From an uncultured Bacteroidota bacterium (GTDB taxonomy: Bacteria; Bacteroidota; Bacteroidia; AKYH767-A; OLB10), in NCBI GenBank assembly GCA_900696575.1, contig CAADHD010000017.1, forward strand, positions 824 to 64,823: a DNA stretch of 64,000 nt, read 5' to 3'. The first letter of the stretch is position 1. Each line of letters starts with the position of its first letter. Both the position numbers and the translations under genes were made by a program. This document shows, in pieces, positions 2,719 through 64,000 of the stretch. Below the pieces are notes generated by a model. That model searched no databases, had not been told where the DNA came from, and was given only the letters and a program-made list of their open reading frames with translations.

Positions 2719-4693
2719 CCTGATTGTTCTTCTTCTGCCCGTTTTGCTTCTTTCTGTATTGTTGATTCAATGGTCGTGCAACCGACAATCAGGAAAAAGT
2801 TATGCTTCGCTCAATCCCGAAACGCAGTATGTCGGTATGGAAACCTGCAAATCATGCCATTCTGATGTGTATGAAACTTTTTCGCACACCGGCATGGGGC
2901 TTTCTTTTGATCAGGCTTCTCAAAAAAAATCTTCTGCTGACTTTTCCAATCATGCTCCGGTATTTGATCATTTCAAAAAGCTCTGGTACTATCCGTTCTG
3001 GCAGAATGACAGTTTACGGATTATGGAATACAGAATTGAAGAAGGCGATACCGTTCATAAACTTATCGAAACAATTAGCTACATAGTAGGCAGCGGGCAG
3101 CATACTAACTCGCATATTATTGAACGGAACGGATATTTATTTCAGGCTCCGCTTACTTTTTACACACAGAAAGGTCAATGGGATTTGCCTCCGGGATTTG
3201 AAAGAGGAAGAAACTCACGTTTTGGCCGCATCATCGGCCTTGAGTGTATGACATGCCACAATGCTTATCCCGATTTTGTGAAAGGCTCTGAAAACAAATA
3301 TCTGAAAGTGAAGACCGGCATTGACTGTGAACGATGCCATGGCCCCGGATCACAGCATGTTAAAGAAAAACGCGAAGGAAAATTGGTGAATACAACTCAG
3401 GAAATTGATTATACCATTGTAAATCCTTCAAAACTTCCGGTGGATTTGCAGTTTGATGTCTGCCAGCGATGCCATATTCAAGGCAATGCCGTGCTGAACG
3501 AAGGGAAATCGTTTTTTGATTTCCGTCCGGGAATGAAGCTTGCGGAAGTGATGAATGTCTTCATGCCGGTTTATTCGGGAGCAGAAGATGAACACATCAT
3601 GGCCTCTCATGCCGAAAGACTCAAAATGAGCCGCTGCTTTCTGGAAACAGATAAAAAATCGCAAAAAGAAAATCAATCAGTGCTTAAGCCGAACATAAAA
3701 AGTTTGACCTGCATCACCTGTCATAATCCGCACCTTAGCGTCAGGAAAACAGAGAAGGATGTTTTTAATGCTTCGTGCAAAAAATGTCATTCATCAAAAG
3801 ACGATAGCCACGGTTGTGCGGCTGATAAAAATCTTTTGAAGAACGAATTATTCAACTGTATAAAATGCCACATGCCTGCCTCGGGAGCTACCGATATTCC
3901 TCATGTTCGCGTAACCGATCATTACATACGTAAACCTGTGCCTGCCCATCAGCAGGAAAAAATCAGAAAGTTTACCGGCATTGCTGCTATCAATAATCCC
4001 AATGCACCTGAATGGAGCAGAGGTATGGCTTTTATCAATTATTTCGAAAAATTTGGTTTTGAACCCTGGTCACTCGATTCGGCTTTGAAGTATTTCCCGA
4101 CATCCAACTCAAAAGAAACTGAAGAGAATCTGGAAGCGCTTATTCATATTCATTACCTGAAGAAAAATTACAGTCAGGTAGCGGAGTATGAAAATATGTT
4201 TCCTGATCTGATTAAACGCTTTTCAAAAATTTCATTTGATAACCGCCATGCCTTTACCTGTTACCGTATCGGTTTTTCGTTGGAGAATACCGGCCATGTG
4301 AATAAAGCAACAGGGTATTACAAACAGGCTGCGAATCTGGCGCCCTTGTATGCAGAGTTTCCGTTGGCTTATGCAGCTTCACTGACAGCTATGGGAGACA
4401 GCAGTAAAGCCATGTCTGTTTATGAGGATGTTCTTAAAGAACAACCCTTCAATGTGCGCGCTCTTTCCAATTACGGATTTCTGAAGTTGGCTTTGGAAGG
4501 CAATGCTTCTTTAGCCGAAGCCATGATCCGGAAAGCCATTGCTTATGACCCTGATTACCTGCAGGCGCATTACAATCTGGCAGGGCTATACCTGTTTCAA
4601 AACCGAAGAACGGAAGCGGAAAGCATTCTAAAAAAAATAGTTCAGCGGTTTCCCGAACAGCAAAAGGCACGCATGATTCTTCAGTCGTTATGA
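2690..4693 (+). CDS. multiheme c-type cytochrome (7 CxxCH) fused to C-terminal TPR repeats
   Basis: Signal peptide MKRKKKLRNNLIVLLLPVLLLSVLL. Seven CxxCH haem-binding motifs (CKSCH, CMTCH, CERCH, CQRCH, CITCH, CKKCH, CIKCH). The C-terminal ~250 aa are TPR-like (AYDPDYLQAHYNLAGLY). Start chosen at the internal Met that carries the signal peptide. Confidence 0.65.
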   Translation: MKRKKKLRNNLIVLLLPVLLLSVLLIQWSCNRQSGKSYASLNPETQYVGMETCKSCHSDVYETFSHTGMGLSFDQASQKKSSADFSNHAPVFDHFKKLWYYPFWQNDSLRIMEYRIEEGDTVHKLIETISYIVGSGQHTNSHIIERNGYLFQAPLTFYTQKGQWDLPPGFERGRNSRFGRIIGLECMTCHNAYPDFVKGSENKYLKVKTGIDCERCHGPGSQHVKEKREGKLVNTTQEIDYTIVNPSKLPVDLQFDVCQRCHIQGNAVLNEGKSFFDFRPGMKLAEVMNVFMPVYSGAEDEHIMASHAERLKMSRCFLETDKKSQKENQSVLKPNIKSLTCITCHNPHLSVRKTEKDVFNASCKKCHSSKDDSHGCAADKNLLKNELFNCIKCHMPASGATDIPHVRVTDHYIRKPVPAHQQEKIRKFTGIAAINNPNAPEWSRGMAFINYFEKFGFEPWSLDSALKYFPTSNSKETEENLEALIHIHYLKKNYSQVAEYENMFPDLIKRFSKISFDNRHAFTCYRIGFSLENTGHVNKATGYYKQAANLAPLYAEFPLAYAASLTAMGDSSKAMSVYEDVLKEQPFNVRALSNYGFLKLALEGNASLAEAMIRKAIAYDPDYLQAHYNLAGLYLFQNRRTEAESILKKIVQRFPEQQKARMILQSL

Positions 4694-6984: not shown

Positions 6985-8217
6985 ATGACGGCAGAAATCA
7001 TCACCATTGGCGATGAAATACTCATCGGGCAGATAATAGACAGCAATTCGGCATGGATGGCACAACAGCTTAATTTCATCGGCATCAAAGTAAAACAAAT
7101 CACTTCGGTATCCGACAGTGAGACGCACATCATAGAAGCACTTAATGCAGCCATTCAGCGCGCTGACATTATTCTGATGACAGGCGGCCTCGGACCCACC
7201 AATGACGACCTTACCAAACCCACTCTTTGCAAATACTTCAACACCGGTTTGCGGTTTGATGAAACAGCTTACCGCGATATTGAAGCATTATTTAAACAAC
7301 GCGGCAGGGAAGTAACTCCGCTTAACCGCATGCAGGCCGAAGTACCTGAAAATTGTAAAACCATTTACAACAAAAACGGCACGGCTCCGGGCATGTGGTT
7401 CGAAGAGAAAGGCAAAATTTTTATTTCCCTTCCCGGTGTTCCTTTTGAAATGAAATCCATGATGACGGAAAGCGTATTACCATGGCTTGCCGGGAAATTC
7501 AACCTTCCGCCTGTAATTCACCGCACCATCCTTACGCAGGGAATAGGCGAATCCATTTTAGCCGATAAAATAAAGGAATGGGAAAATGCATTACCGGCTG
7601 ACCTACGGCTTGCTTATTTGCCTTCCGTTGGAATGGTAAGGTTGAGGCTTTCTGCAGTTGGTGAGAAAAAAAAGACATCAGCCGAAATCAATTCGCAAAT
7701 TGAAAAAGTATTACCGTTGATTGATAAATATGTTTTCGGATTTGATGACGATACTTTGCAAAGCAGGGTAGGAGTGGAACTGAAAAAAAGGAATGCAACA
7801 TTGGTAGCTACTGAAAGCTGCACGGGTGGATACGTGGCACATTTAATTACATCGGTGCCCGGCAGCTCGGCTTATTTTAAAGGAGGAATTGTTTCATACT
7901 CCAATGAAATGAAAGTAGATGTACTGCATGTATCGGCAGATACACTTAAAAAACACGGAGCCGTAAGCGAAGAAACCGTAATGGAAATGGCAGAGAATGC
8001 AAAAAGAATTTTTAAAACAGATTATGCAGTTGCTACTTCAGGCATTGCCGGCCCTGATGGCGGCACACAGGAAAAACCCGTTGGTACTGTCTGGATTGCC
8101 GTAGCCACCCCCGATAAAATCATCAACCGCAAATTGCAGCTTGGCAATAAACGGTTACACATTATTGAAGTGGCTTCGCAAAGTGTATTGCATTTGCTGC
8201 TGAAAGACCTAGTTTAA
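6985..8217 (+). CDS. cinA: CinA family competence/damage-inducible protein (nicotinamide-nucleotide amidohydrolase)
   Basis: N-terminal MoaB/MogA-like domain (MTAEIITIGDEILIGQIIDSNSAWM) plus a C-terminal CinA deamidase domain. 410 aa. Confidence 0.85.
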   Translation: MTAEIITIGDEILIGQIIDSNSAWMAQQLNFIGIKVKQITSVSDSETHIIEALNAAIQRADIILMTGGLGPTNDDLTKPTLCKYFNTGLRFDETAYRDIEALFKQRGREVTPLNRMQAEVPENCKTIYNKNGTAPGMWFEEKGKIFISLPGVPFEMKSMMTESVLPWLAGKFNLPPVIHRTILTQGIGESILADKIKEWENALPADLRLAYLPSVGMVRLRLSAVGEKKKTSAEINSQIEKVLPLIDKYVFGFDDDTLQSRVGVELKKRNATLVATESCTGGYVAHLITSVPGSSAYFKGGIVSYSNEMKVDVLHVSADTLKKHGAVSEETVMEMAENAKRIFKTDYAVATSGIAGPDGGTQEKPVGTVWIAVATPDKIINRKLQLGNKRLHIIEVASQSVLHLLLKDLV

Positions 8218-8334
8218 CGGATTTGTTTTTTTTCATCCCATTTTGATTTTTCAGAATTTATTTACATTTGTATTTCTGATTTGGATCATGATCCGGCTCG
8301 AAAACACCAATCTCCCTCTGCACGGTTCTTGTAA

Positions 8335-8352
8335 TGTGTGTGTGTGTGTGTG
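8335..8352. repeat. (TG)9 dinucleotide microsatellite
   Basis: Perfect tgtgtgtgtgtgtgtgtg within intergenic repeat element A. The homologous copy at ~50988 has only (GT)4. Confidence 0.9.
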
Positions 8353-8388
8353 ACGACACGCTAAAAACCCAAACCGAGAAAAGTATAA

Positions 8389-8436
8389 TCCCGTTTTATC
8401 TCGTCCATGAAAGACGAGACAATACGGGATTTTTTA
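8389..8436 (+). terminator. rho-independent terminator downstream of cinA
   Basis: Hairpin TCCCGT...ATCTCGTC-catgaaa-GACGAGAC...ACGGGA followed by TTTTTT. Confidence 0.5.
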
Positions 8437-8600
8437 TGCTTATCGGTATGGTCGTATGGCTTGCAGCAGAATTGTATCAGGAAATGGAAAAGAAACAGGT
8501 AATAAGTTTATAAAACAAAATTAAAAGGAGGAAGCCGAAAATCCCTGCCTGCCCTTGGCAGGCTTTAACAGAGTAGGCAGAAAATAAAAACCAAATCAAT

Positions 8601-8732
8601 ATGTTAAAAAAATCATTTACTTTGGCTCTTGCAGTCATGCTAATGATGACCCTGAGCTGTCGGAAAGAACAACAGGTTAACACCCTTAACAAGAAAGGAG
8701 GTAATACGGCTGCCTTACGGCTGGCGCCTTAA
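8601..8732 (+). CDS. short lipoprotein signal-peptide ORF (probable 5' fragment of an interrupted gene)
   Basis: MLKKSFTLALAVMLMMTLSC with a lipobox Cys. It ends at a TAA that is in frame with the next ORF. Confidence 0.35.
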   Translation: MLKKSFTLALAVMLMMTLSCRKEQQVNTLNKKGGNTAALRLAP

Positions 8733-8813
8733 GAACTGGAGTCGGTAACCAACGACTTTATTACCCAATCGCTTTCACGGCAATGGAACCTTGGAACGTA
8801 TGAGTACGAAGAT

Positions 8814-9170
8814 GTGGTATTGATGCACGAAGGAGCGTTGAACTACCGCACCTGCACACCGCATGAGTATTATGATGAGATTGCCATAGACAGCGCTTCA
8901 AGGTTCATCACCATTGAACAATCAGAAACTGATGGGCCATGGGTTGTAAGTCCCGATGTACTGAGAGAATTCTGGGAAGATTTACTTACTCATGCACAGC
9001 AAACAGCCGAACGCTTAGAAAACGGAGAGTACTTCAACATAGTAGCTGATCTTGAAATCGGCCATGTTGACTACGAAGAAAAAAGGATAAGAGTGAGTGT
9101 GATAATGGTTGCAGGCATTAATATCTATGACATAAAAGCCTGCAATTTTGATCCAAATACAGATTATTAG
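8814..9170 (+). CDS. hypothetical protein (GTG start; probably the middle segment of a decayed lipoprotein gene)
   Basis: 118-aa ORF with no ATG start. It is in the same frame as 8601-8732 upstream and 9243-9623 downstream, separated from each only by single stop codons. Confidence 0.35.
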   Translation: MVLMHEGALNYRTCTPHEYYDEIAIDSASRFITIEQSETDGPWVVSPDVLREFWEDLLTHAQQTAERLENGEYFNIVADLEIGHVDYEEKRIRVSVIMVAGINIYDIKACNFDPNTDY

Positions 9171-9242
9171 AATTCTGCTTCTTTTGGCCCTTGTAATCCT
9201 GGTTCAGGAAGTTTCTCACTTGGCTCATGGGACATTATCCAA

Positions 9243-9623
9243 ATGAAATTAAATCCTTTTCTTAATTGCTATGAGCAGTATAATTGTGACTATTTTTCAG
9301 ACATTTCATGGAAATCCTTTTCGAATTATTATCCCCCTTGGCCCCCGTATAATCAATGTGGAACAGGATGTAATTCGCTTTCTGACATTTGGATGGGAAC
9401 ATACAATCAGTGTCTTACACCAACAGAATTAGAATGTGAGCGAGATGCGATTAGATCATTTTCTTATTGTAATAAACCTCTTGTTTCAGGTAGTTTAGTT
9501 CAATACAAATTACCAATTGTATATAATGTGACAGTTGATCCATTTTATACAAATCCTCAAGTCGCCTTTCATGGAGCGCAAGTTTTTTATGGCAAATGCA
9601 GTTCTTATTCAAGTGAAAATTAA
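9243..9623 (+). CDS. cysteine-rich hypothetical protein
   Basis: 126 aa with ~10 Cys (NCYEQYNCDY, CGTGCNS, CLTPTELECERD, YCNKP, GKCSSY). Very AT-rich. Confidence 0.35.
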   Translation: MKLNPFLNCYEQYNCDYFSDISWKSFSNYYPPWPPYNQCGTGCNSLSDIWMGTYNQCLTPTELECERDAIRSFSYCNKPLVSGSLVQYKLPIVYNVTVDPFYTNPQVAFHGAQVFYGKCSSYSSEN

Positions 9624-9625
9624 TT

Positions 9626-11137
9626 ATGAATATACAAATTGTTTTAAAATTTATTAGAAATCTTGTTTTAAGTATGATAATGACTGGGAATTTATATTCC
9701 CAGTCATTTGAATATATATACCAAACAACCGATGATGAAGTAATTTCTGATGCGGTTCAAGATGTTAAAGGAAATTATTTTTTAGTTGGAAGCATCGGTA
9801 ATAGCCTGCCACCATCACAGGGCGATAAAAGTGGATTAATTATTAAAATTGATAGCCTTGGGCAGTATATCGATTCTAAAATTATCAACAGCAATCAGGA
9901 TTACATTAGTTTGGGTAATATAATCCTTGATTCAGATTCTACATTCTTAATAACTGGTTATAGGATACCAATAGGAATGTCGAACAGTTTAATTTATACT
10001 TTAAAATTAGATACAGCTTTGAATATACTCTCTGAACAAAGCTTTGGGGACTTTGCTTATAACAATCAGATTTCTAAAATATATAAAATCAATCTTGATA
10101 CACTGATTTTTGTTGGAAGTGTGCAAACATATTCTCCCCAAATTAATTCAGACATAATTTTCGGAATGATGTCAACTAATGGAGATTCAATTAGTATGTT
10201 GAAATTTGGAAATCCTAATGGTTTTCAAATGGGATTTGATTTGTTAGTCTATAATAATAATATTGATTCTGTATATTTGTTTGTTTATGGAATGCTTAAT
10301 ACACCAATGTATCCATTGGAAGTTATTAAACTGAGTTCCAATTTTGGTTTGGATAGTATTGCTATAATACCTATATCCTCAACAATTAGAACTATGTCTG
10401 CAAAATGGATAAGCTTAACTACTTTCTTGGTTGGCACATCTGGATATGAAAACGTATGGTCATTAGATAAAAGTTTGGGTATAGGTAAGTTTGATATAAC
10501 TTTTAATTGTATTGATACATTGTTTTTTGGTGTGGCTGATACAAATGAACATGAAGCAGGTTTTTGTATAGATTTTAAAACTGTTGACAAGGTTTATTTT
10601 GGTGGAACAAAGAACTCTTCTCTATTCTTTTCTCCTTTCGAATCATATTATTACATCATAAGAATGGATACGAGTTTTAATGTAAGTTTTGTTAAATCTA
10701 TCGGATATCAAAATGATTGTCTTGGCCTATACAAAGTCCTCGCCACCAGCGATGGCGGAGTGCTGCTTGCGGGTACCAAATACGATGCAGCCACAGCCAA
10801 CGGGCAGGAGCGCGATATTTATGTCATCAAACTCGATTCGCTGGGCAACTATGTAACCGGTACCGGCAACAGCCCCATTGAACAGGTTCATGATTTTATT
10901 GTTTATCCCAACCCTGCTGCTTCACAACTTACGTTTTAATACTCACCACCAAAATCAACCGGCCATGCAACTGTTTACAATGTTTTAGGTGAAGCAGTGC
11001 AACAATTCACATTACCCCCTAACACCACCCGCCAGCAACTCAACATTACTCACTTGTCAGCAGGGCTTTATTTAATAAAGGTAGAGGCATATGGGAAAAG
11101 CGGAGTAAAGCGGTTTGTAAAGCTTGCCTGCCGATAG
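9626..11137 (+). pseudogene. T9SS C-terminal-sorting-domain protein (beta-propeller-like) interrupted by an in-frame TAA at 10937-10939
   Basis: The ORF 9626-10939 ends ...VYPNPAASQLTF*. The same frame continues YSPPKSTGHATVYNVLGEAVQQFTLPPNTTRQQLNITHLSAGLYLIKVEAYGKSGVKRFVKLA to TAG at 11135-11137. Together these form a canonical Por-secretion CTD split by a single nonsense codon. Confidence 0.6.
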
Positions 11138-11371
11138 GTATGGGAGTAGAAGAAAAAGCTAAATGAAAAATGAGCTCAGAAGTAACCAAGTCCGTAGTCG
11201 CCAGAGTGCAGTGCCGGGCTTCAGGCTACGGAGAGCGGGGGTTGGTGAAAAGAACACCTGCCAGGGCAAAATAAACGGTTACATATTATTGAAGTGGCTG
11301 CGCAAAGTGTATTGCATTTGTTGCTGAAGGAACTGAAATGATAGGTACATACAACCAGCAACAAAGCAGAG

Positions 11372-12196
11372 TCAAGTATAAATACTGGTCACAAACCTGT
11401 AATTCCCGATCAGGTCTTTCAGTAACTGCACTTCACGGAATCCATGCTGCATCATGTATTCAGGCAATGCTTTTCCATACTGAAAATGCACTTCGAAAAA
11501 TAAATGCCCCCCTTGCCTGAGTAATCTTTTCCTGCATAAGCCGATGATGGTTTTGTAAAAAAGCAGCGGGTCATCATTCGTTACAAATAAAGCTTCATGC
11601 GGTTCAAAGTCTGCAACGGAAGTCTGCATTTCCTGCTTTTCATTTAAGGTAACATAAGGAGGATTGCTGACAATTACATCAAACTCATTCCATGCATTGC
11701 AGCGTAGAATATCTTTTTGCAAAAACTCAATATCAAGATGATGCATAACGGCATTGGCTTTTGCGGTTTGCAGAGCTTTTTCGCTGATGTCGGATGCCGT
11801 GATATTCCACTTTGGAAAAAACTTTTTCAGCGCTAACGCTATGCAGCCTGAGCCTGTGCCTATGTCAAGCACTTTGATTTTTTCAGCAGCAAGGTCATGC
11901 AACCGGTCTTTTATCATAAATACCAGTTCTTCCGTCTCAGGGCGCGGAATCAGTACGGATGGATTCACCTGTAATTGCATTCCTGCAAATTCTGTCCACC
12001 CTGCCACATATTGAACAGGCTCATGATTCAGTAATCTTTTTTTGATGGATTCAAGTTCTTGCTCATTCATAATAGTCAATTTTTTTTCAGACCACCAATG
12101 AAGGATGTAATCAACAATGGCGCTGCCATCGTCCCTGCCAAACTCACGGGTTAAATCATCTTTTAAATAATTTTCAATTTCGTTGTGCGAAAGCAT
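11372..12196 (-). CDS. prmC: peptide chain release factor N5-glutamine methyltransferase
   Basis: 274 aa with the class I SAM-MTase motif VLDIGTGSGCIA and the NPPY motif (VSNPPYV). Confidence 0.85.
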   Translation of the reverse strand: MLSHNEIENYLKDDLTREFGRDDGSAIVDYILHWWSEKKLTIMNEQELESIKKRLLNHEPVQYVAGWTEFAGMQLQVNPSVLIPRPETEELVFMIKDRLHDLAAEKIKVLDIGTGSGCIALALKKFFPKWNITASDISEKALQTAKANAVMHHLDIEFLQKDILRCNAWNEFDVIVSNPPYVTLNEKQEMQTSVADFEPHEALFVTNDDPLLFYKTIIGLCRKRLLRQGGHLFFEVHFQYGKALPEYMMQHGFREVQLLKDLIGNYRFVTSIYT

Positions 12197-41380: not shown

Positions 41381-43513
41381 TTATTCAGAAATCGTAACCT
41401 TTTCAGTTACCACTCCTTTAGCGGTTTCAACTTTTACTAAATAAACTCCTGTTGCAAAACCGGAAAGATCAACTTCCAGTGTTTGAGTAATACCTTTAAT
41501 TTTTGCTGAATAAACATCTTTACCCATTACATCAGTCATCATAATTTTTGCATCGCTGTAGCTGTCAAACTGCAGGCTGATGTTCAATTTGTCTTTGGCA
41601 GGATTCGGGAAGATGTTCATATACACACCGGCAGTCTGCTCCTGAATAGATGTAGGTGTAACGCCAATGTCGTCAATGTAAAGATTGTTTCCACCGCCAT
41701 GCGTGTTACGGAAAGCAATCAGCAGGTTTTTAACTCCGAGATAGGAAGAAAGACTTACTGTCTCTTCTCTCCATTCAGCACTGGTAGGTACAAAGACCGA
41801 AGCGTTATTGGCAGCAGCTGTGGCTAAAGTGCTTCCCCATTTTTTGTAAATGGAAGTATATGTTTTTCCGCAGTCGGTAGAAGCAAAAACTTCTAGCGTA
41901 TCATTAGTAGTAGCTGTTCTTTGCGCATAAGCAACCCAGAATTTAAGACCGGCATTGGCAGGAGCGCTGCTCATGTCAATAGGTTGAATAATCATTTCAT
42001 CCATCACTCCGATCTGCGTAGCTGTTTGGGTAAAATTGGTGTAGGTCAGAGAATAAGTGCCTGAATGTGCAGCAGTATTAAGGCGCTGCCACGCTGTACC
42101 GCAATCATAATTTCTGTTAGCCCATCCAACAGGAGGGAAGGGTGTTGATTCAAAACCCTGAGTAATAGGGAATGCTCCGTTTATAGCATGACCTATAAAG
42201 TTTCTTGATGTTCTGTCGTTTACTGCATTTCCATCTGTTCCGCCATTGGGCAAAGTAGTCCATGCGTAGAAGATATGATCGGTGGCATTATTGCTCGCGC
42301 CTAAAGTTTGCTGAGGAAGGGTTACGGAAGTTGTTGCCCCTGAAGCCAGATTACCGCTCCAGCTATATGTGCTGGTTGCTCCGTTATCAATTTTGTAATT
42401 GATGGTAGCAGAAGTAAGCGCAGACGTACCGAAGTTTTTCAACTGTACTTCGGGTATAAAACTCCGTGAAGTAAAATCGCATGGCGAAAAAGCCGGGCTT
42501 GTTATTTCCGATATGCCTGCATCCAGTGCAGGCACTGTTACCGGATTTAAGCCGGGTGAAGTTGACAAGGAAGCACGTGTTGAATTAAGTACGGCCCACA
42601 TGCGGTCTGCCTGTCCTTGAGAAAACATATACATGCATTTATCATCGGTATAATCCATATAGTTCATATACATATCACCAACAGGCTGATTGCTACACGT
42701 AAATGCATGGCATGAAGGGCAACCGAAGTTAGAAGTAGAATGAGTGGGGGTATCAGCAACCAAATCGCTTCCGCAGGAAGCATCGCCCCAGATATGACGA
42801 AGGTTTAACCAGTGGCCTACTTCGTGAGTTACCGTACGTCCGTAGTTATAAGGAGCAGCAGCGCTAATGCGTCCAAAAGCCGAGTAAAGAATAACAACAC
42901 CATCCGTAGCCGCTGTACCACCCGGAAATTGAGCATACCCAAGCAAGCCGCCACCAAGATTACAAACCCACATATTAAGGTACTGGGTTGTATTCCATGC
43001 ATTGCTTCCGCCCTGTGCCGTGTATTTTACAGCATTATTCTGGCTGAAAGAAGTTATCGTAGTTGAAACACGTACAATACCATTTGTAGCAACTCCGCTT
43101 GGGTCGCGTTTGGCAAGTTCAAAACGAATGCCTGTATCATTGGCTAAGCGGCCTCTGAAAAACGGTGGTGTTTTAATAATATCGGAATTATAACCGCCAA
43201 AGTCTTCATTAAATACATCAATCTGCGATTTAATAAGTTCATCGGAGATGTTTTGTGCAGCGCCATTGTAAACCACATGCACCACTACCGGAATAACAAT
43301 GTTGTTTCCCTGCTTTCTCAGGTTATTTTTGTTATGCAACAGCCATTGTTCTACTGCCTCATTAGCAGCATCCATTCCCTGAGCCGAAGCAGGGTCGTTG
43401 GCGCGGAGCCATGCATTATATTCATCGGTTCCGCAGCGCTGATAAGTGCCCTGAGCTTGTATTGCCAAAGCAGAAAGGCAGAACAGTGTTAAAACGAGTA
43501 ATTGTTTTTTCAT
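41381..43513 (-). CDS. T9SS-secreted M43 (cytophagalysin/pappalysin-like) zinc metalloprotease
   Basis: Signal peptide MKKQLLVLTLFCLSALAIQAQ, zincin motif HEVGHWLNLRHIWGD, and a C-terminal Por-secretion sorting domain (VYMNIFPNPAKDKLNISL...GVYLVKVETAKGVVTEKVTI). Confidence 0.8.
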   Translation of the reverse strand: MKKQLLVLTLFCLSALAIQAQGTYQRCGTDEYNAWLRANDPASAQGMDAANEAVEQWLLHNKNNLRKQGNNIVIPVVVHVVYNGAAQNISDELIKSQIDVFNEDFGGYNSDIIKTPPFFRGRLANDTGIRFELAKRDPSGVATNGIVRVSTTITSFSQNNAVKYTAQGGSNAWNTTQYLNMWVCNLGGGLLGYAQFPGGTAATDGVVILYSAFGRISAAAPYNYGRTVTHEVGHWLNLRHIWGDASCGSDLVADTPTHSTSNFGCPSCHAFTCSNQPVGDMYMNYMDYTDDKCMYMFSQGQADRMWAVLNSTRASLSTSPGLNPVTVPALDAGISEITSPAFSPCDFTSRSFIPEVQLKNFGTSALTSATINYKIDNGATSTYSWSGNLASGATTSVTLPQQTLGASNNATDHIFYAWTTLPNGGTDGNAVNDRTSRNFIGHAINGAFPITQGFESTPFPPVGWANRNYDCGTAWQRLNTAAHSGTYSLTYTNFTQTATQIGVMDEMIIQPIDMSSAPANAGLKFWVAYAQRTATTNDTLEVFASTDCGKTYTSIYKKWGSTLATAAANNASVFVPTSAEWREETVSLSSYLGVKNLLIAFRNTHGGGNNLYIDDIGVTPTSIQEQTAGVYMNIFPNPAKDKLNISLQFDSYSDAKIMMTDVMGKDVYSAKIKGITQTLEVDLSGFATGVYLVKVETAKGVVTEKVTISE

Positions 43514-43568
43514 AATTTTTTTGATTTTAAGTTTTGAGGTTGACAAAGCTAAAAAAAACCTATAAAAT

Positions 43569-44171
43569 TCAAACTTTCCCGTCTTTAAACTTCCACAGAT
43601 ACATACATGCATAACTGCGGTAGGGTACCCAGTTTTCGGCTATTTTTTGCATTTGCGTAATCCGTTTCTTTTTATCAGGTGAACTGATGCCGTAAAGATT
43701 CTTCATTGCAGCAATAATTCCTCCGTCATCCACGGGAAAAACATCCTCTCTTCCCAGAGAAAACATTAACACCATTTCTACCGTCCAACGGCCTACGCCT
43801 TTTATTTCGGTGAGGTATTCAATCACTTCTTCGTTTTCCATTTTATTGAGTTTGCCGTATGTTAACCCTTTATCAATGGCAAAAGAGGCTACATTTTTAA
43901 GGTAGCAGCTCTTGGCTTCAGATAATCCTGCTTGGCGCATCATTTCAGTTTCAATTCGCAAAAGTTCTTCAGGTAAAGGGATTTTATTTTCATTCAGATT
44001 CAGAAAACGGCTTTTGATAGTCCGTGCTGCCGAAACCGAAAGCTGTTGTGAAATAATACTTGAACACAAATACCAGAATACATTTCTGTTGGTTGTCAAT
44101 TCAACAGGACCATGCTTCCTTATTACCGGCTCGAGTATTTTGTCTTTTTTAAGATGACGGATGTGTTTCAT
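43569..44171 (-). CDS. HhH-GPD DNA glycosylase (AlkA-like 3-methyladenine glycosylase II family)
   Basis: 200 aa with a helix-hairpin-helix/GPD region (GVGRWTVEMVLMFSLGREDVFPVDD). Confidence 0.65.
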   Translation of the reverse strand: MKHIRHLKKDKILEPVIRKHGPVELTTNRNVFWYLCSSIISQQLSVSAARTIKSRFLNLNENKIPLPEELLRIETEMMRQAGLSEAKSCYLKNVASFAIDKGLTYGKLNKMENEEVIEYLTEIKGVGRWTVEMVLMFSLGREDVFPVDDGGIIAAMKNLYGISSPDKKKRITQMQKIAENWVPYRSYACMYLWKFKDGKV

Positions 44172-47831: not shown

Positions 47832-48566
47832 TCACTTTACCACATCAAGCATGCCGTAACCTTCATCGGTCAGCATGCCAATGCCTGTTTGCCAGATGAA
47901 ACGGTGAACGTCCGGATGTGCATGAAGCGTAAACGGAAGCAGATATCCAGTCATCGGCAGGCCTGAACTGCATTTGTATTGCCGGGCAAACTTTTTCCCT
48001 TCATGATGCACTTTATTGATGTATTCGCTGTCGGGAATAATTTCAAATTCTGCGTATTGGTTGAGTTGTTCTTCAGTAAAACCTGCCTTCTCCATTTTTT
48101 CTATCACCGAATTGTAAAGCATGTCGCTGAATTCATGCGAAGCCGGGTCAACAACCTGCATCGCTTTTTCGGCATCGTTATTCGGGTTTACCAATACTAT
48201 CGGAGAAATGCAGAGGTACCGCATCCGTGTTTGAAAATCGGGGTCTTCAATTTTAATTTTTCCTTTTACGCGAAGGGTAAGCCGGCCTATAATCAGTTTC
48301 GGATGCTCAAAAATTTTCTCTTTCAACTGCCTTACTTCATCCTCTTTTCTTCCCGATATAACCAAAGTGATTTTTGCCGAAAGAAGTTTCATGTATCCGT
48401 TCTGGATTTTGGACGTTGCTTTCAGCGATGAAAAATTGAAGTCGTACCGGTTATTGGAAATCGAATCAATCATCGGCCCAAGCGCATCGTTAATCAGTTT
48501 CTGATGATGCAGCGGAATGGTGTTCGTTGAGTTTTTCTCGCGGACAAAAGTGATTTTGTAACGCAT
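47832..48566 (-). CDS. Cas6-like RAMP endoribonuclease homologue (orphan)
   Basis: 244 aa. N-terminus MRYKITFVREKNSTNTIPLHHQKLINDALGPMIDS is like Cas6 (MR.K.TL....IPLNYQY). The C-terminal glycine-rich loop GIGMLTDEGYG matches GhGxxxxxGhG. No array or cas genes in the window. Confidence 0.5.
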   Translation of the reverse strand: MRYKITFVREKNSTNTIPLHHQKLINDALGPMIDSISNNRYDFNFSSLKATSKIQNGYMKLLSAKITLVISGRKEDEVRQLKEKIFEHPKLIIGRLTLRVKGKIKIEDPDFQTRMRYLCISPIVLVNPNNDAEKAMQVVDPASHEFSDMLYNSVIEKMEKAGFTEEQLNQYAEFEIIPDSEYINKVHHEGKKFARQYKCSSGLPMTGYLLPFTLHAHPDVHRFIWQTGIGMLTDEGYGMLDVVK

Positions 48567-51085: not shown

Positions 51086-51275
51086 AGTTTTCCGTTTCCA
51101 TTTTTTTTATCACCGGTATTTCCGTGCTTATCAGAAGGGCTTCCGTGCTACGCAGCGAAAGGGCGCCCTTCAGGGCTACGGGTGCGCGCAGAAATTTCAG
51201 TTTACTGCATACATCAGGGCTACAGCCTGTTCAAAAATGTGAGAAAGTGCGAACAGGCAGAACACCCGTCACGGG

Positions 51276-51345
51276 TAAAAACTAAATGAAAAATGATTTC
51301 AGAAGTAACAAACTCAATAGTTGCCAGAGCGCCAGGCAGGGCTAA
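51276..51345. repeat. intergenic repeat element B' (homologue of 11152-11230)
   Basis: aaaactaaatgaaaaatgatttcagaagtaacaaactcaatagttgccagagcgccaggcagggc aligns with aaagctaaatgaaaaatgagctcagaagtaaccaagtccgtagtcgccagagtgcagtgccgggc. Confidence 0.6.
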
Positions 51346-51426
51346 AGACTATGGACATAGGGAAATTTACGAAGCATACTATTCACTCCTAAACTCCCAA
51401 CTCCGAACCAATTACTCCCCGCTATC

Positions 51427-61675: not shown

Positions 61676-64000
61676 CTACTTCACAACTATCAACTTCTCC
61701 GTCTGCACTACTTTGTTCTTCTGAATCAGGTTCACAAAATATGTTCCTGCAGCAATGCGTGAAGTATTAAACTCAACACTGTCATTCAAAATAGTTTCGA
61801 ATACAATGATGCCACGGTTATCAGCCACTTTCAGCTTGGAGTTTTTAGATAAACTTTTTAATGCTTCAAATTTTACATGATGGGAGGCAGGATTGGGAAT
61901 CATGCTGAATAATTTTTCTTTCGGATCAATCTGTTCTGCCACAGATGTAACCGAGTAGTCATAATAGCCGAAAACATATTCGCCTTTCTTCAAAGTATCA
62001 ATAGTAATGGAGCCGCGCTTATCAGTCGGGTTGGCAATGACGCGTGTAAAACCGTTTACTACCTGCCAGTCGTCCCATGTACCGGCACGGTAAAGAATAA
62101 TGACACTGTCTTCGGGGCCGGTAATCAGGTTGTTGTCGAGATAGCCGTTGGTCAGGCTTGTTGAGCCATCATACAGAAAAGTGGCTTTGCTGAGAAAACC
62201 TGTAATCCATATTCCATCCACCGACCAGTAATGATAATCGCTCAGGCGTATGCCGGGATTGGATTGTTTTAATCCATCCGGTGTTACATAATGATGTTCA
62301 ATACGGGTTTTATTACTCATGAGGGGAGGAACTGTAATACCCAGCGATTGTACATTAAGCGTAACACCGGTTTCGGGAAAAGTCTGATTACCGAGCGTGG
62401 TTATGTCTCTTTCAAAATCCACAATGGCATCGCCTACTTTCCGGTTGCGGTCGAGCATAATCCAGTCGGCAGTTTGAATCAGCGGAATGTGAAACATGTT
62501 GGTAACCGAATCAATCACCATGGTAACGGTCGTATCCTGCACCCCGTTGGAGAAAGTGATTTCGACCGGCATTTTGTAAATGTGATTGTTATTTCCGCGC
62601 GAGCGCTGGCGGGTGTAAACGAAATAATGGTCAAGCCCACCGGGAATATACACAACAGAATCAATGGAGAAGTGGGGCCAGCCTGGCGTAAAAATCCAGT
62701 CATCAAAAAAACGGCTCATATTAATTCCGGTTGGCACTTCGAGGTCATCGCGCAGATCGTAGCTGGTGGCATTACCGTAAGCATGATTGCCATGGAAGAA
62801 TTTGCAACCTTCAAAGAAAGCCGAATCGCCCATGTAATAACGCATGGTATGTATAAGGTCGGCTGCTTTCTGATACACATGCATACCGTAGGTATGTGTT
62901 TCGGGAATGTTGTTCATAGTTAAATAGGAGCCATCGTTTTGCGGAACATGGGCAAACTGAAGCACTTTACGGTGGTTGGCATGAATCCAGTTTTGGTAAG
63001 CAGGTTTTCCATAAACGGCTTCTGTCATCAAGGCTTCGTTGTAGGTAGCCCATCCTTCGTTAAGCCACATATCCTGAGCCGTGAGGCAGGTTGCATTATC
63101 ACCCCACCACATGTGTGCAAGCTCATGTGCCCACAGGGTTTCATAAGTAAGGGTACCATTAATAAATGCCCTGCCAATGGCAATGTTGGTAGCATGTTCC
63201 ATCGCACCGCTATTGAAAGGAACCAACGAATACCCGACCTTGCTGAAAGGATATGGCCCCCAGGCATTAATAAAAGTACTGAGTACCGTATCAAGATTCT
63301 GAAAAGTGTTGTTGATGTTGGTAGTATCAGTATAAATACAAGCCCATTCAACCGGAAGCCCATTGGAGGTTTTTGTTTTGGTGATGTAAGGACCAACGGC
63401 CATACAGGCAAGATAGGTGGGTATGGGGTCTGTCATTTTCCAGTGCCAGGTTTTAGTTCCGTTGGGATTGATGATTTCAGCCTGTAAAATGCCATTGGCA
63501 AAAGCTTTATTGGCAGCAGAAGTGGTGATGAAAAATTCGTATTCGGCTTTGTCATTGAAAACATCAATACAAGGAAACCACACTTTGCCGAGGTTATGCG
63601 GAATGGCCTGAAAGCCTACCCCGAGATTGAAAGCGTAAAGTCCGGTGAAATAAAATCCGCCCCAGCCCGAAGCATCCTGTTTAGGATTGCCGCGGTAATA
63701 CACTGTAATGGCAAGCGAATCACCAAAATTGGCCGAAGGAATTACAGGAATGGAAATGACAGTATCGTTGTACGAATAACTTACAGTCTGCCCGTTAAGT
63801 CGCAGCGAATCAATGGTAAGCTGAAGCAAATCAAGTCGAAGCTGGTTTACGCCATTAACTTTTGCAATGGCTTTTACTTCTGTTTTGGCCCGAAGGGTCT
63901 TAGCTACAAAGTCAAGTGTATCAATGGTGATAATATATCTGGCAACGCGAACCGAATCGGTGATGCTCTGGGAAGAAGAAAATCCTGATTTTAAGGCAGG
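61676..64000 (-). CDS. T9SS-secreted M1-family (aminopeptidase N-like) zinc metallopeptidase, partial (N-terminus beyond window)
   Basis: GAMEH exopeptidase motif and HELAHMWWGD ... E zinc site. C-terminal Por-secretion sorting domain (LFSMIPNPASHHVKFEALK ... GTYFVNLIQKNKVVQTEKLIVVK). The frame stays open to the window edge. Confidence 0.8.
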   Translation of the reverse strand, partial: PALKSGFSSSQSITDSVRVARYIITIDTLDFVAKTLRAKTEVKAIAKVNGVNQLRLDLLQLTIDSLRLNGQTVSYSYNDTVISIPVIPSANFGDSLAITVYYRGNPKQDASGWGGFYFTGLYAFNLGVGFQAIPHNLGKVWFPCIDVFNDKAEYEFFITTSAANKAFANGILQAEIINPNGTKTWHWKMTDPIPTYLACMAVGPYITKTKTSNGLPVEWACIYTDTTNINNTFQNLDTVLSTFINAWGPYPFSKVGYSLVPFNSGAMEHATNIAIGRAFINGTLTYETLWAHELAHMWWGDNATCLTAQDMWLNEGWATYNEALMTEAVYGKPAYQNWIHANHRKVLQFAHVPQNDGSYLTMNNIPETHTYGMHVYQKAADLIHTMRYYMGDSAFFEGCKFFHGNHAYGNATSYDLRDDLEVPTGINMSRFFDDWIFTPGWPHFSIDSVVYIPGGLDHYFVYTRQRSRGNNNHIYKMPVEITFSNGVQDTTVTMVIDSVTNMFHIPLIQTADWIMLDRNRKVGDAIVDFERDITTLGNQTFPETGVTLNVQSLGITVPPLMSNKTRIEHHYVTPDGLKQSNPGIRLSDYHYWSVDGIWITGFLSKATFLYDGSTSLTNGYLDNNLITGPEDSVIILYRAGTWDDWQVVNGFTRVIANPTDKRGSITIDTLKKGEYVFGYYDYSVTSVAEQIDPKEKLFSMIPNPASHHVKFEALKSLSKNSKLKVADNRGIIVFETILNDSVEFNTSRIAAGTYFVNLIQKNKVVQTEKLIVVK

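Follow-up and report, generated by a model that had tools for sequence, protein, structure and literature searches.

Integrative elements and prophages can insert at the 3′ ends of tRNA genes or of protein-coding genes, with a replacement 3′ end carried in the attP site of the incoming DNA. Foreign DNA can also enter naturally transformable bacteria by homology-facilitated illegitimate recombination or by Campbell-type insertion. Decayed remnants of ICEs (integrative and conjugative elements) or of IMEs (integrative and mobilizable elements) that keep attL and attR and have lost their integration and transfer genes are called cis-mobilizable elements (CIMEs; PMC5704250), and have been described for streptococcal elements located at gene 3′ ends. 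In Pseudomonas, the mutS-cinA intergenic hot spot, located upstream of cinA, harbours tailocin and prophage clusters (PMC2647930). Here, we analysed a stretch of 64,000 nt (hereafter the window) that corresponds to positions 824-64,823 on the forward strand of contig CAADHD010000017.1, in assembly GCA_900696575.1 of an uncultured Bacteroidota bacterium (Bacteroidia; AKYH767-A; OLB10). In this window, an islet of 3.1 kb that contains two decayed genes for surface proteins is inserted at the 3′ end of cinA, between two direct repeats of the tail of that gene. All coordinates are positions within the window; L-numbers denote contigs of related genomes or metagenomes, and P-numbers denote proteins.

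The duplicated segment is 66 nt long (AATAAACGG...GAACTG). Its boundaries were set by aligning the cinA tail with those of relatives, and its two copies are identical at 60 of the 66 positions, with six mismatches. A repeat search paired positions 8146-8210 with 11270-11334 (65 nt, 92% identity), BLAST within the window gave the pair an E value of 5e-21, and a 30-nt core pattern of the repeat occurs exactly twice in the 64 kb, with zero occurrences expected in shuffles. These values are far beyond chance, and the direct repeat is real. The initial annotation had already recognized it and, as a check of the open reading frames (ORFs) and their translations confirmed, had rightly placed both copies in frame with the peptides that they encode, but its identity of ~88% was an overestimate (about 86% over 72 nt) and its start was off by one base.

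The edges of the repeat are sharp. The homology of the right copy begins exactly at AATAAACGG, that of the left copy stops exactly after GAACTG, and the 6 nt that follow the 66-mer read GTTTAA after copy 1 and AAATGA after copy 2. The spacing of the two copies is 3,124 bp, which is also the size of the insert including one repeat. The last 24 codons of cinA lie within or after copy 1; its reading frame is kept at 410 residues, with a terminal GTT TAA derived from the insert. CinA is thus full length despite the insertion, and it is the insert that supplies the last codon, the stop codon and a strong hairpin terminator. Copy 2 is preceded by neither a start codon nor any further homology to cinA, and a TGA codon in the same frame is found at 11246. 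The displaced cinA stop is 30 nt away from the stop of the prmC-like gene, and cinA and prmC are now separated by 3.15 kb.

The empty site was identified by scanning metagenomes with CinA. In two relatives of ~90% (L078) and ~86% (L056) nucleotide identity, cinA runs directly into prmC, which is followed by ribD. Their alignments cover positions 7298/7726 to 8207 and 11270 to 12305/12452 of the window and overlap by about 62-63 nt, so the repeat is present only once in these genomes. The single tail, which ends in KEFK* in L078 and in KELK* in L056, agrees with copy 2 wherever the two window copies differ, save at one site that is variable among relatives, and the DNA downstream of it is contiguous. 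Thus, copy 2 represents the displaced native 3′ end, and copy 1 is the junction that arose through the insertion. To judge from these gene arrangements, the comparison shows that the ancestral order was cinA convergent with prmC. The insertion into the cinA 3′ end proposed in the initial annotation, with incoming DNA supplying the end of the gene, is borne out by the single tail and by the uninterrupted cinA-prmC junction of both relatives. A scan of genome contigs with CinA was useless for the junction, as the best relative has 59% protein identity and its synteny is not conserved.

The polarity of the two copies is also apparent from mismatch counts. When compared with the 66-mers of L078, L056 and L102, copy 2 has three to five mismatches, and copy 1 has eight or nine. 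The derived changes of copy 1 are found at positions 31, 52, 60, 63 and 66 of the repeat, as well as at its end, and all are located 3′ of a block of 30 nt in which the two copies match at every site but one, itself variable among relatives. In a strain of 96% identity (L095), the tail differs from copy 2 of the window at only two of 66 positions. At its formation, the duplicate was thus almost identical, and the present divergence is mostly due to later drift in copy 1. With so small a difference, the sequence gives no proof of a foreign cinA as the source of the tail. Nor is the repeat a dispersed element, as the window has only two copies of it and no such duplication is seen at 64 other cinA loci.

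The empty sites could alternatively result from the loss of an older islet, precisely excised by recombination between the 66-nt repeats. With a crossover placed within their first 30 nt, the product would be exactly a tail of the copy-2 type joined to prmC, and the fact that the 96% relative shares both the tail and the leader of the islet places the insertion before the divergence of these strains. However, a secondary loss affects the timing only, since the original insertion is still required. In addition, the 64 more distant cinA loci are devoid of the duplication, and L102 (84% nucleotide identity) has a copy-2-like tail body followed by yet another neighbour. We consider such a loss improbable.

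The possibility of an assembly artefact was addressed with independent assemblies. The left junction is supported by contigs L043-L047, the right one by L048-L053 and L093, and both by L055. The latter, contig JAEUTJ010000006.1 of a metagenome-assembled genome (MAG), is 99.75% identical to the window and contains the same islet, which differs by a change in (TG)n length and a 13-nt indel at 8363-8378. Contig L093, from JGI, covers positions 8446-11902 at 99.8% identity. In the species, short-read unitigs have breaks at 8367/8371, 9023, 10843 and 11094, as might be expected if the MAG held a chimeric join or a repeat had been collapsed, but these breaks are explained by k-mers shared with a paralogous module of the same species (L087, see below). 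As many independent contigs, obtained in different studies, span the two junctions, misassembly was ruled out, and we regard its likelihood as practically nil.

We lean, with no more than moderate confidence, towards the view that the islet is a decayed CIME-like remnant of an integration event, with an att-like site in the tail of cinA as the target. In this scenario, a circular element with a 66-bp copy of the cinA tail (attP) would have recombined with the chromosomal tail (attB) by means of a tyrosine- or serine-type integrase, yielding the attL/attR pair. The crossover would have taken place within the first ~30 nt of the repeat, and the integration and transfer genes would have been lost later, leaving the remnant. 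This reading is suggested by the empty site, the sharp 66-bp segment, the restored reading frame, the displaced native end and the location of the copy 1 changes 3′ of a nearly invariant 30-nt block. A 66-bp segment of identity is within the range of integrases that target gene 3′ ends. The footprint described in the initial annotation is present. Site-specific integration as its mechanism we can only infer, as a single crossover or homology-facilitated illegitimate recombination leaves the same footprint and no integrase-bearing parent was found.

A number of results weigh against an integrase-mediated origin. There is no integrase, excisionase or transfer gene in the islet, nor a fragment of one, and no integrase, recombinase, transposase or conjugation gene was found in the insert, in its Pfam-annotated flanks of ±10 kb or among the remaining ORFs of the window, which confirms and extends to the whole 64 kb what had first been noted for the insert. 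A blastn search in distant mode with positions 8146-11341 returned no matches in phages and plasmids, exact-pattern scans of viral contigs with pieces of the leader and the trailer and with the repeat core returned none either, and no integrase-bearing parent element is present among the fetched loci. Thus, the full-length element that the initial annotation had envisaged was absent from the phage, plasmid and viral collections and from these loci. In the same vein, a derivation from an ICE or IME has no counterpart in remnant genes of the islet or in related elements of the searched collections and loci. The leader and the trailer share no arm-type repeats beyond chance. At the 64 other loci, a comparison of the final 120 nt of cinA with as much as 8 kb of downstream DNA detected no duplication, which indicates that use of cinA as an att site is not widespread. 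In at least 12 samples, unitigs pass both junctions unbranched; the islet appears to be fixed and immobile, with no trace of a subpopulation that is excised or has an empty site. Lastly, the cargo consists of ordinary chromosomal-type surface-protein genes that have a resident paralog rather than of typical element genes, and the near-exact original duplicate (2/66 differences between L095 and copy 2) suits self-duplication as well as attP.

The same footprint could be produced by an integrase-free acquisition. A fragment from a related strain, composed of a cinA end, the leader, the gene module and the trailer, might have entered by transformation or transduction and been fixed by a Campbell-type crossover or by homology-facilitated illegitimate recombination. 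Either a circularized fragment would have crossed over in the 66-nt homology, or a fragment anchored in cinA would have had its far end joined just upstream of AATAAACGG. No lost genes need to be invoked for such a route, in keeping with the absence of recombinases from the window and the insert, and a duplicate ~97% identical to the resident tail at its origin is what one expects from a close relative. Relatives L102 and L094/L095 have alternative DNA directly behind cinA, so such donor arrangements do exist. At the joint, the trailer end ...GGGCAA beside AATAAACGG offers a possible microhomology with the native GGCAATAAACGG, but it gives the observed joint only with two extra A's. Moreover, single crossovers over 66 bp are inefficient, a circularized chromosomal fragment requires an explanation of its own, the break within 1 nt of the same position in L102 is unaccounted for, and the joining of the leader after GAACTG is merely pushed back to the donor. 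We view this route, the main alternative to the CIME-like reading, as possible but unlikely.

Transposition, or an illegitimate insertion, with an unusually long target-site duplication of 66 bp would also agree with copies that were almost identical when formed and with the lack of an integrase. However, no terminal inverted repeats link the ends of the islet and there is no transposase, as would be found in a transposon or insertion sequence. To our knowledge, the target duplications of bacterial transposition range from only a few to roughly 15 bp, and 66 bp exceeds them. Moreover, the final codon and stop are exchanged in a way that leaves cinA intact, as one typically sees with att-type elements rather than with random insertion. 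This explanation thus appears very unlikely.

The left junction of the islet also coincides with a breakpoint in a more distant relative. In L102, the cinA sequence ...GAATTG is directly followed by a block of Ig-like, amidohydrolase, NlpC-P60, thiolase and adk genes. In the species of the window, the Ig-like/amidohydrolase/NlpC-P60/thiolase/adk/purEK block comes after the paralogous module (L087, position 2812 onward; L102, 11162-11440). From this gene order, the L102 arrangement is best described as a chromosomal rearrangement with a breakpoint at the left junction of the islet. Thus, cinA has three downstream partners, namely prmC, the islet leader and the Ig-like block, whose joints all fall no more than 1 nt from a single point, and the position of the L102 break suggests a preferred recombination point. 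On this basis, the cinA end (...CTGAAGGAAYTG^) might be the live site of an unrecognized trans-acting recombinase of this Bacteroidia clade that would move integrase-less surface-protein cassettes, composed of the leader and either lipoprotein/T9SS or PKD cargo, between loci and cause chromosomal rearrangements, with the cargo silenced by nonsense codons only. We find this idea very improbable. A further observation on the same site is that CinA relatives P0119-P0125 (81-91% identity) diverge right after LLLKxL, with the endings ELIG, ELTT, ELV, ALV, VLDH and QL. These differences could represent further junctions at this site or ordinary C-terminal drift.

Table 1. Features of the cinA islet and its immediate neighbours (positions in the 64-kb window).
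Feature	Position	Strand	Description or evidence
cinA, 410 aa, intact	6985-8217	+	MoCF_biosynth, CinA_KH and CinA/PncC domains; Pfam CinA 2.3e-55
Repeat copy 1 (attL-like), 66 nt	8146-8211	+	Encodes NKRLHIIEVASQSVLHLLLKDL, the functional end of cinA; left side colinear with the cinA body of relatives
New last codon and stop, GTT TAA	8212-8217	+	From the insert, replaces native AAA TGA; same GTTTAA junction in L055 and L095
Leader, non-coding	8218-8600	+	Reads GTTTAACGGATTTG.. after the 66-mer; sequence, fold and strain comparison
(TG)9 microsatellite in leader	8335-8352	+	Sequence
Terminator-like hairpin	8390-8428, then T6 at 8430-8435	+	Fold -27.3 kcal/mol, z=-5.9
Conserved promoter/5′ untranslated region (5′UTR) of the module	from 8434	+	Homology with L090 starts at 8434
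Lipoprotein pseudogene, 341 codons	8601-9623	+	Signal peptide with lipobox LSC, Cys-rich C-terminal half; frame analysis, homologs
Low-GC divergent core of the module, 29-35% GC	9101-10725	+	Gene 1, 3′ half; gene 2, 5′ two-thirds
Pseudogene of type IX secretion system (T9SS) cargo, 504 codons	9626-11137	+	PF18962 8e-13, match spans the stop
Trailer, non-coding, 52% GC	11138-11269	+	3′ end CCAGGGCAA; last ~50 nt unique
79-nt dispersed repeat in trailer	11154-11232	+	Also at 51277-51355 and after the T9SS gene of the paralog
Repeat copy 2 (attR-like), 66 nt at 11270-11335, plus native AAA TGA	11270-11341	+	Displaced original 3′ end of cinA
prmC-like methyltransferase gene, convergent with cinA	11372-12196	-	Ancestral right-hand neighbour; ORF list, Pfam, relatives

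Between the two repeats, the islet is made of a leader, two pseudogenes and a trailer (Table 1). The initial annotation had listed a lipoprotein/Cys-rich gene and a T9SS cargo gene. Frame analysis indicated that the lipoprotein and Cys-rich ORFs (8601-8732, 8814-9170 and 9243-9623) are pieces of one gene, split by in-frame TAA (8730-8732) and TAG (9168-9170) codons. An intact protein of 351 residues encoded by L089 aligns with this lipoprotein pseudogene over its full length (57% identity) and has Asp and Trp at the positions of the stops, where the resident paralog has a GAA codon and Trp. No Pfam family matches the lipoprotein gene. Similarly, the T9SS ORF, 9626-10939, continues in frame past its TAA codon (10937-10939) to 11137. 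This stop lies inside the Por_Secre_tail sorting domain, at a position where homologs carry Gln, and a product ending there would be devoid of a sorting signal. All three nonsense codons are identical in independent assemblies. Thus, there are two pseudogenes rather than three genes, and, to judge from their reading frames and homologs, both cargo genes are dead. Recoding of the stop codons was rejected, since homologs have differing residues at these positions (Glu/Asp, Trp and Gln) and all three stop codons have their normal function in the neighbouring housekeeping genes.

The decay of these genes appears to involve only nonsense codons. The disrupted genes at or related to the islet, i.e. 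three genes in two strains amounting to ~2,200 codons, have six in-frame TAA or TAG stops (window 8730, 9168 and 10937; L087 ~436-438; L095 3873 and 4578) and zero indels. This could be due to chance, to substitution-biased mutation or to selection for the loss of surface proteins. No other broken gene was seen in the window. Two other T9SS genes of the window are intact, coding for an M43 peptidase (41381-43612, - strand) and an M1 peptidase (61676-63829, - strand), each with a Por_Secre_tail domain; hence, T9SS cargo is not generally decayed in this window.

We then considered the composition of the islet. The AT-richness initially ascribed to the whole insert holds for the central ~1.6 kb only and not for the leader, the gene ends or the trailer. 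The GC content is 34.6% at 9101-9623 and 29.5% at 9626-10725, with a window mean of 42%. Towards the ends of the islet, it is 38% in the leader, 44% in the 5′ part of the first gene, 48% in the 3′ part of the T9SS gene and 52% in the trailer. The drop in GC begins and stops inside the two reading frames. A low-GC centre is also present in the resident paralog (33.8%) and in the modules of other genomes (34.5%; 37.8% vs a background of 46%). Thus, composition does not mark the islet as an acquired island, as its low-GC centre is common to native homologs and its ends have a normal GC content. The presence of the same centre in every homologous module indicates that AT-richness is a trait of this gene pair and not a mark of recent foreign origin. 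With the resident paralog and the intact modules sharing it, the argument for foreign DNA that had been drawn from composition is weak.

The non-coding parts of the islet have features of their own. The (TG)9 tract of the leader and the adjacent 13-nt indel (8335-8378) are polymorphic within the species, as seen between the window and L055. An Rfam scan yielded nothing beyond a DUF805b-like hairpin in the 5′UTR (8525-8579), whose score of 31.3 bits is below the gathering score of 35.6, with an E value of 6e-5 for the whole window. A similar hairpin is present in L095 (~3410-3465) and L090 (~8830), in a conserved 5′UTR ahead of differing genes for secreted proteins, a lipoprotein or a PKD-domain protein. 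Repeats of ~79 nt similar to that of the trailer (78-83% identity) are intergenic; they are found behind T9SS genes (L087 2661-2736) and also in a 700-nt intergenic region at 50.7-51.4 kb. A motif resembling repetitive extragenic palindromes (REP-like), GGGCGCCCTTCAGGGCTACGG, adjoins this repeat (window 51160-51181) and occurs in a 118-nt extra insert in the leader of the sister strain (L095 3266-3382). No significant fold was predicted.

The two-gene module is not restricted to the cinA locus. The same species has a resident paralog on contig JAEUTJ010000021.1 (L087) of MAG GCA_016787965.1, which is 92% identical to the window at 8539-9101 and 81% identical at 10726-11217, with a divergent centre. 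The L087 contig begins within the leader; it has an intact T9SS gene and a lipoprotein gene with a TGG-to-TAG nonsense codon of its own. The ratio of nonsynonymous to synonymous substitution rates (dN/dS) is 0.16 when the conserved 5′ parts of both modules are compared. Thus, both copies were under selection for most of their divergence, and their inactivation is recent relative to it. Intact modules are found in L089, beside gyrB/parE-like genes, and in L090-L092, between a DUF2400 gene and an MBOAT gene. Homologous modules are present in four different genomic contexts. There are no flanking duplications at the module sites of L089-L092.

In the sister strains L094/L095 (96% identical), cinA with its GTTTAA-type tail and the leader up to position 8596 are shared with the window, next to the 118-nt REP-like insert. 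Their cargo is a single PKD-domain gene of at least 843 codons, with a normal GC content, interrupted by TAA and TAG codons. The leader and 5′UTR are thus common to different types of cargo, with a lipoprotein gene present both in the window and in L090 but a PKD gene in L095, and the homology ends at the start codon. At the other end, the T9SS sorting-domain region has 67-80% protein identity among several T9SS proteins, at least three of which are from this MAG (P0004, P0014 and the islet gene). It is plausible from these similarities that the conserved ends serve as anchors for cargo replacement by homologous recombination, which would proceed via the leader/5′UTR on the left and via the sorting-domain DNA and the trailer on the right. 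Such a turnover would account for the different PKD cargo of the sister strain and for the combination of paralog-like ends with an unlike centre. Elsewhere in the window, an orphan Cas6-like ORF (47832-48566, - strand; Cas_Cas6_C, 1e-16) is located amid housekeeping genes, and there are no cas genes among its scanned neighbours.

This locus provides a fully bracketed example of the 3′ end of a housekeeping gene as a landing pad, for which the two junctions, an empty site and the native end in its displaced position are all available. It suggests that the islet is a strain-variable slot for cell-surface genes, of the T9SS or lipoprotein type, that were later inactivated. For annotation, it means that three ORFs called in the islet should be read as parts of two pseudogenes and that the 23-codon cinA fragment beside prmC is a relic. 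Its wider interest is limited to a target gene, cinA, that had not been reported before, to the breakpoint that recurs in relatives and to the nonsense-only mutations. In our literature search, no paper described an att site at the 3′ end of cinA.

Among the known systems, the islet is similar to CIMEs in that direct repeats include the 3′ end of the target gene, there are no integrase or transfer genes, only cargo is present and the target gene is intact. With the repeats as putative att sites, it has kept attL and attR and has no mobility genes. In contrast with CIMEs, it has no recognizable ICE or IME gene remnant and no known cognate integrase-bearing element, its host is an uncultured member of the Bacteroidia, its target is cinA, and no accretion or tandem structure is seen. 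The islet shares with integrative elements of gene 3′ ends an empty attB-type site in relatives, a sharp identity segment of tens of bp, attL/attR-type junctions with a reading frame restored by the element and a native end at the far junction, but it has no integrase adjacent to the att site, measures only 3.1 kb and has cargo with a chromosomal paralog. As in homology-facilitated illegitimate recombination or Campbell-type insertion, one-sided cinA homology could have been the anchor, no dedicated recombinase is present and the far joint has a possible microhomology; such events, however, usually replace or delete recipient DNA, whereas the islet has a clean 66-bp duplication. The mutS-cinA hot spot of Pseudomonas similarly has a variable, strain-specific insert beside cinA. 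It differs by its phage-tail gene clusters upstream of the gene and by the lack of a cinA 3′ duplication, and it belongs to an unrelated phylum. Thus, the cinA islet is an ordinary decayed genomic islet of a well-known structural type; it reveals no new mechanism, and its novelty lies in the target gene and the host clade.

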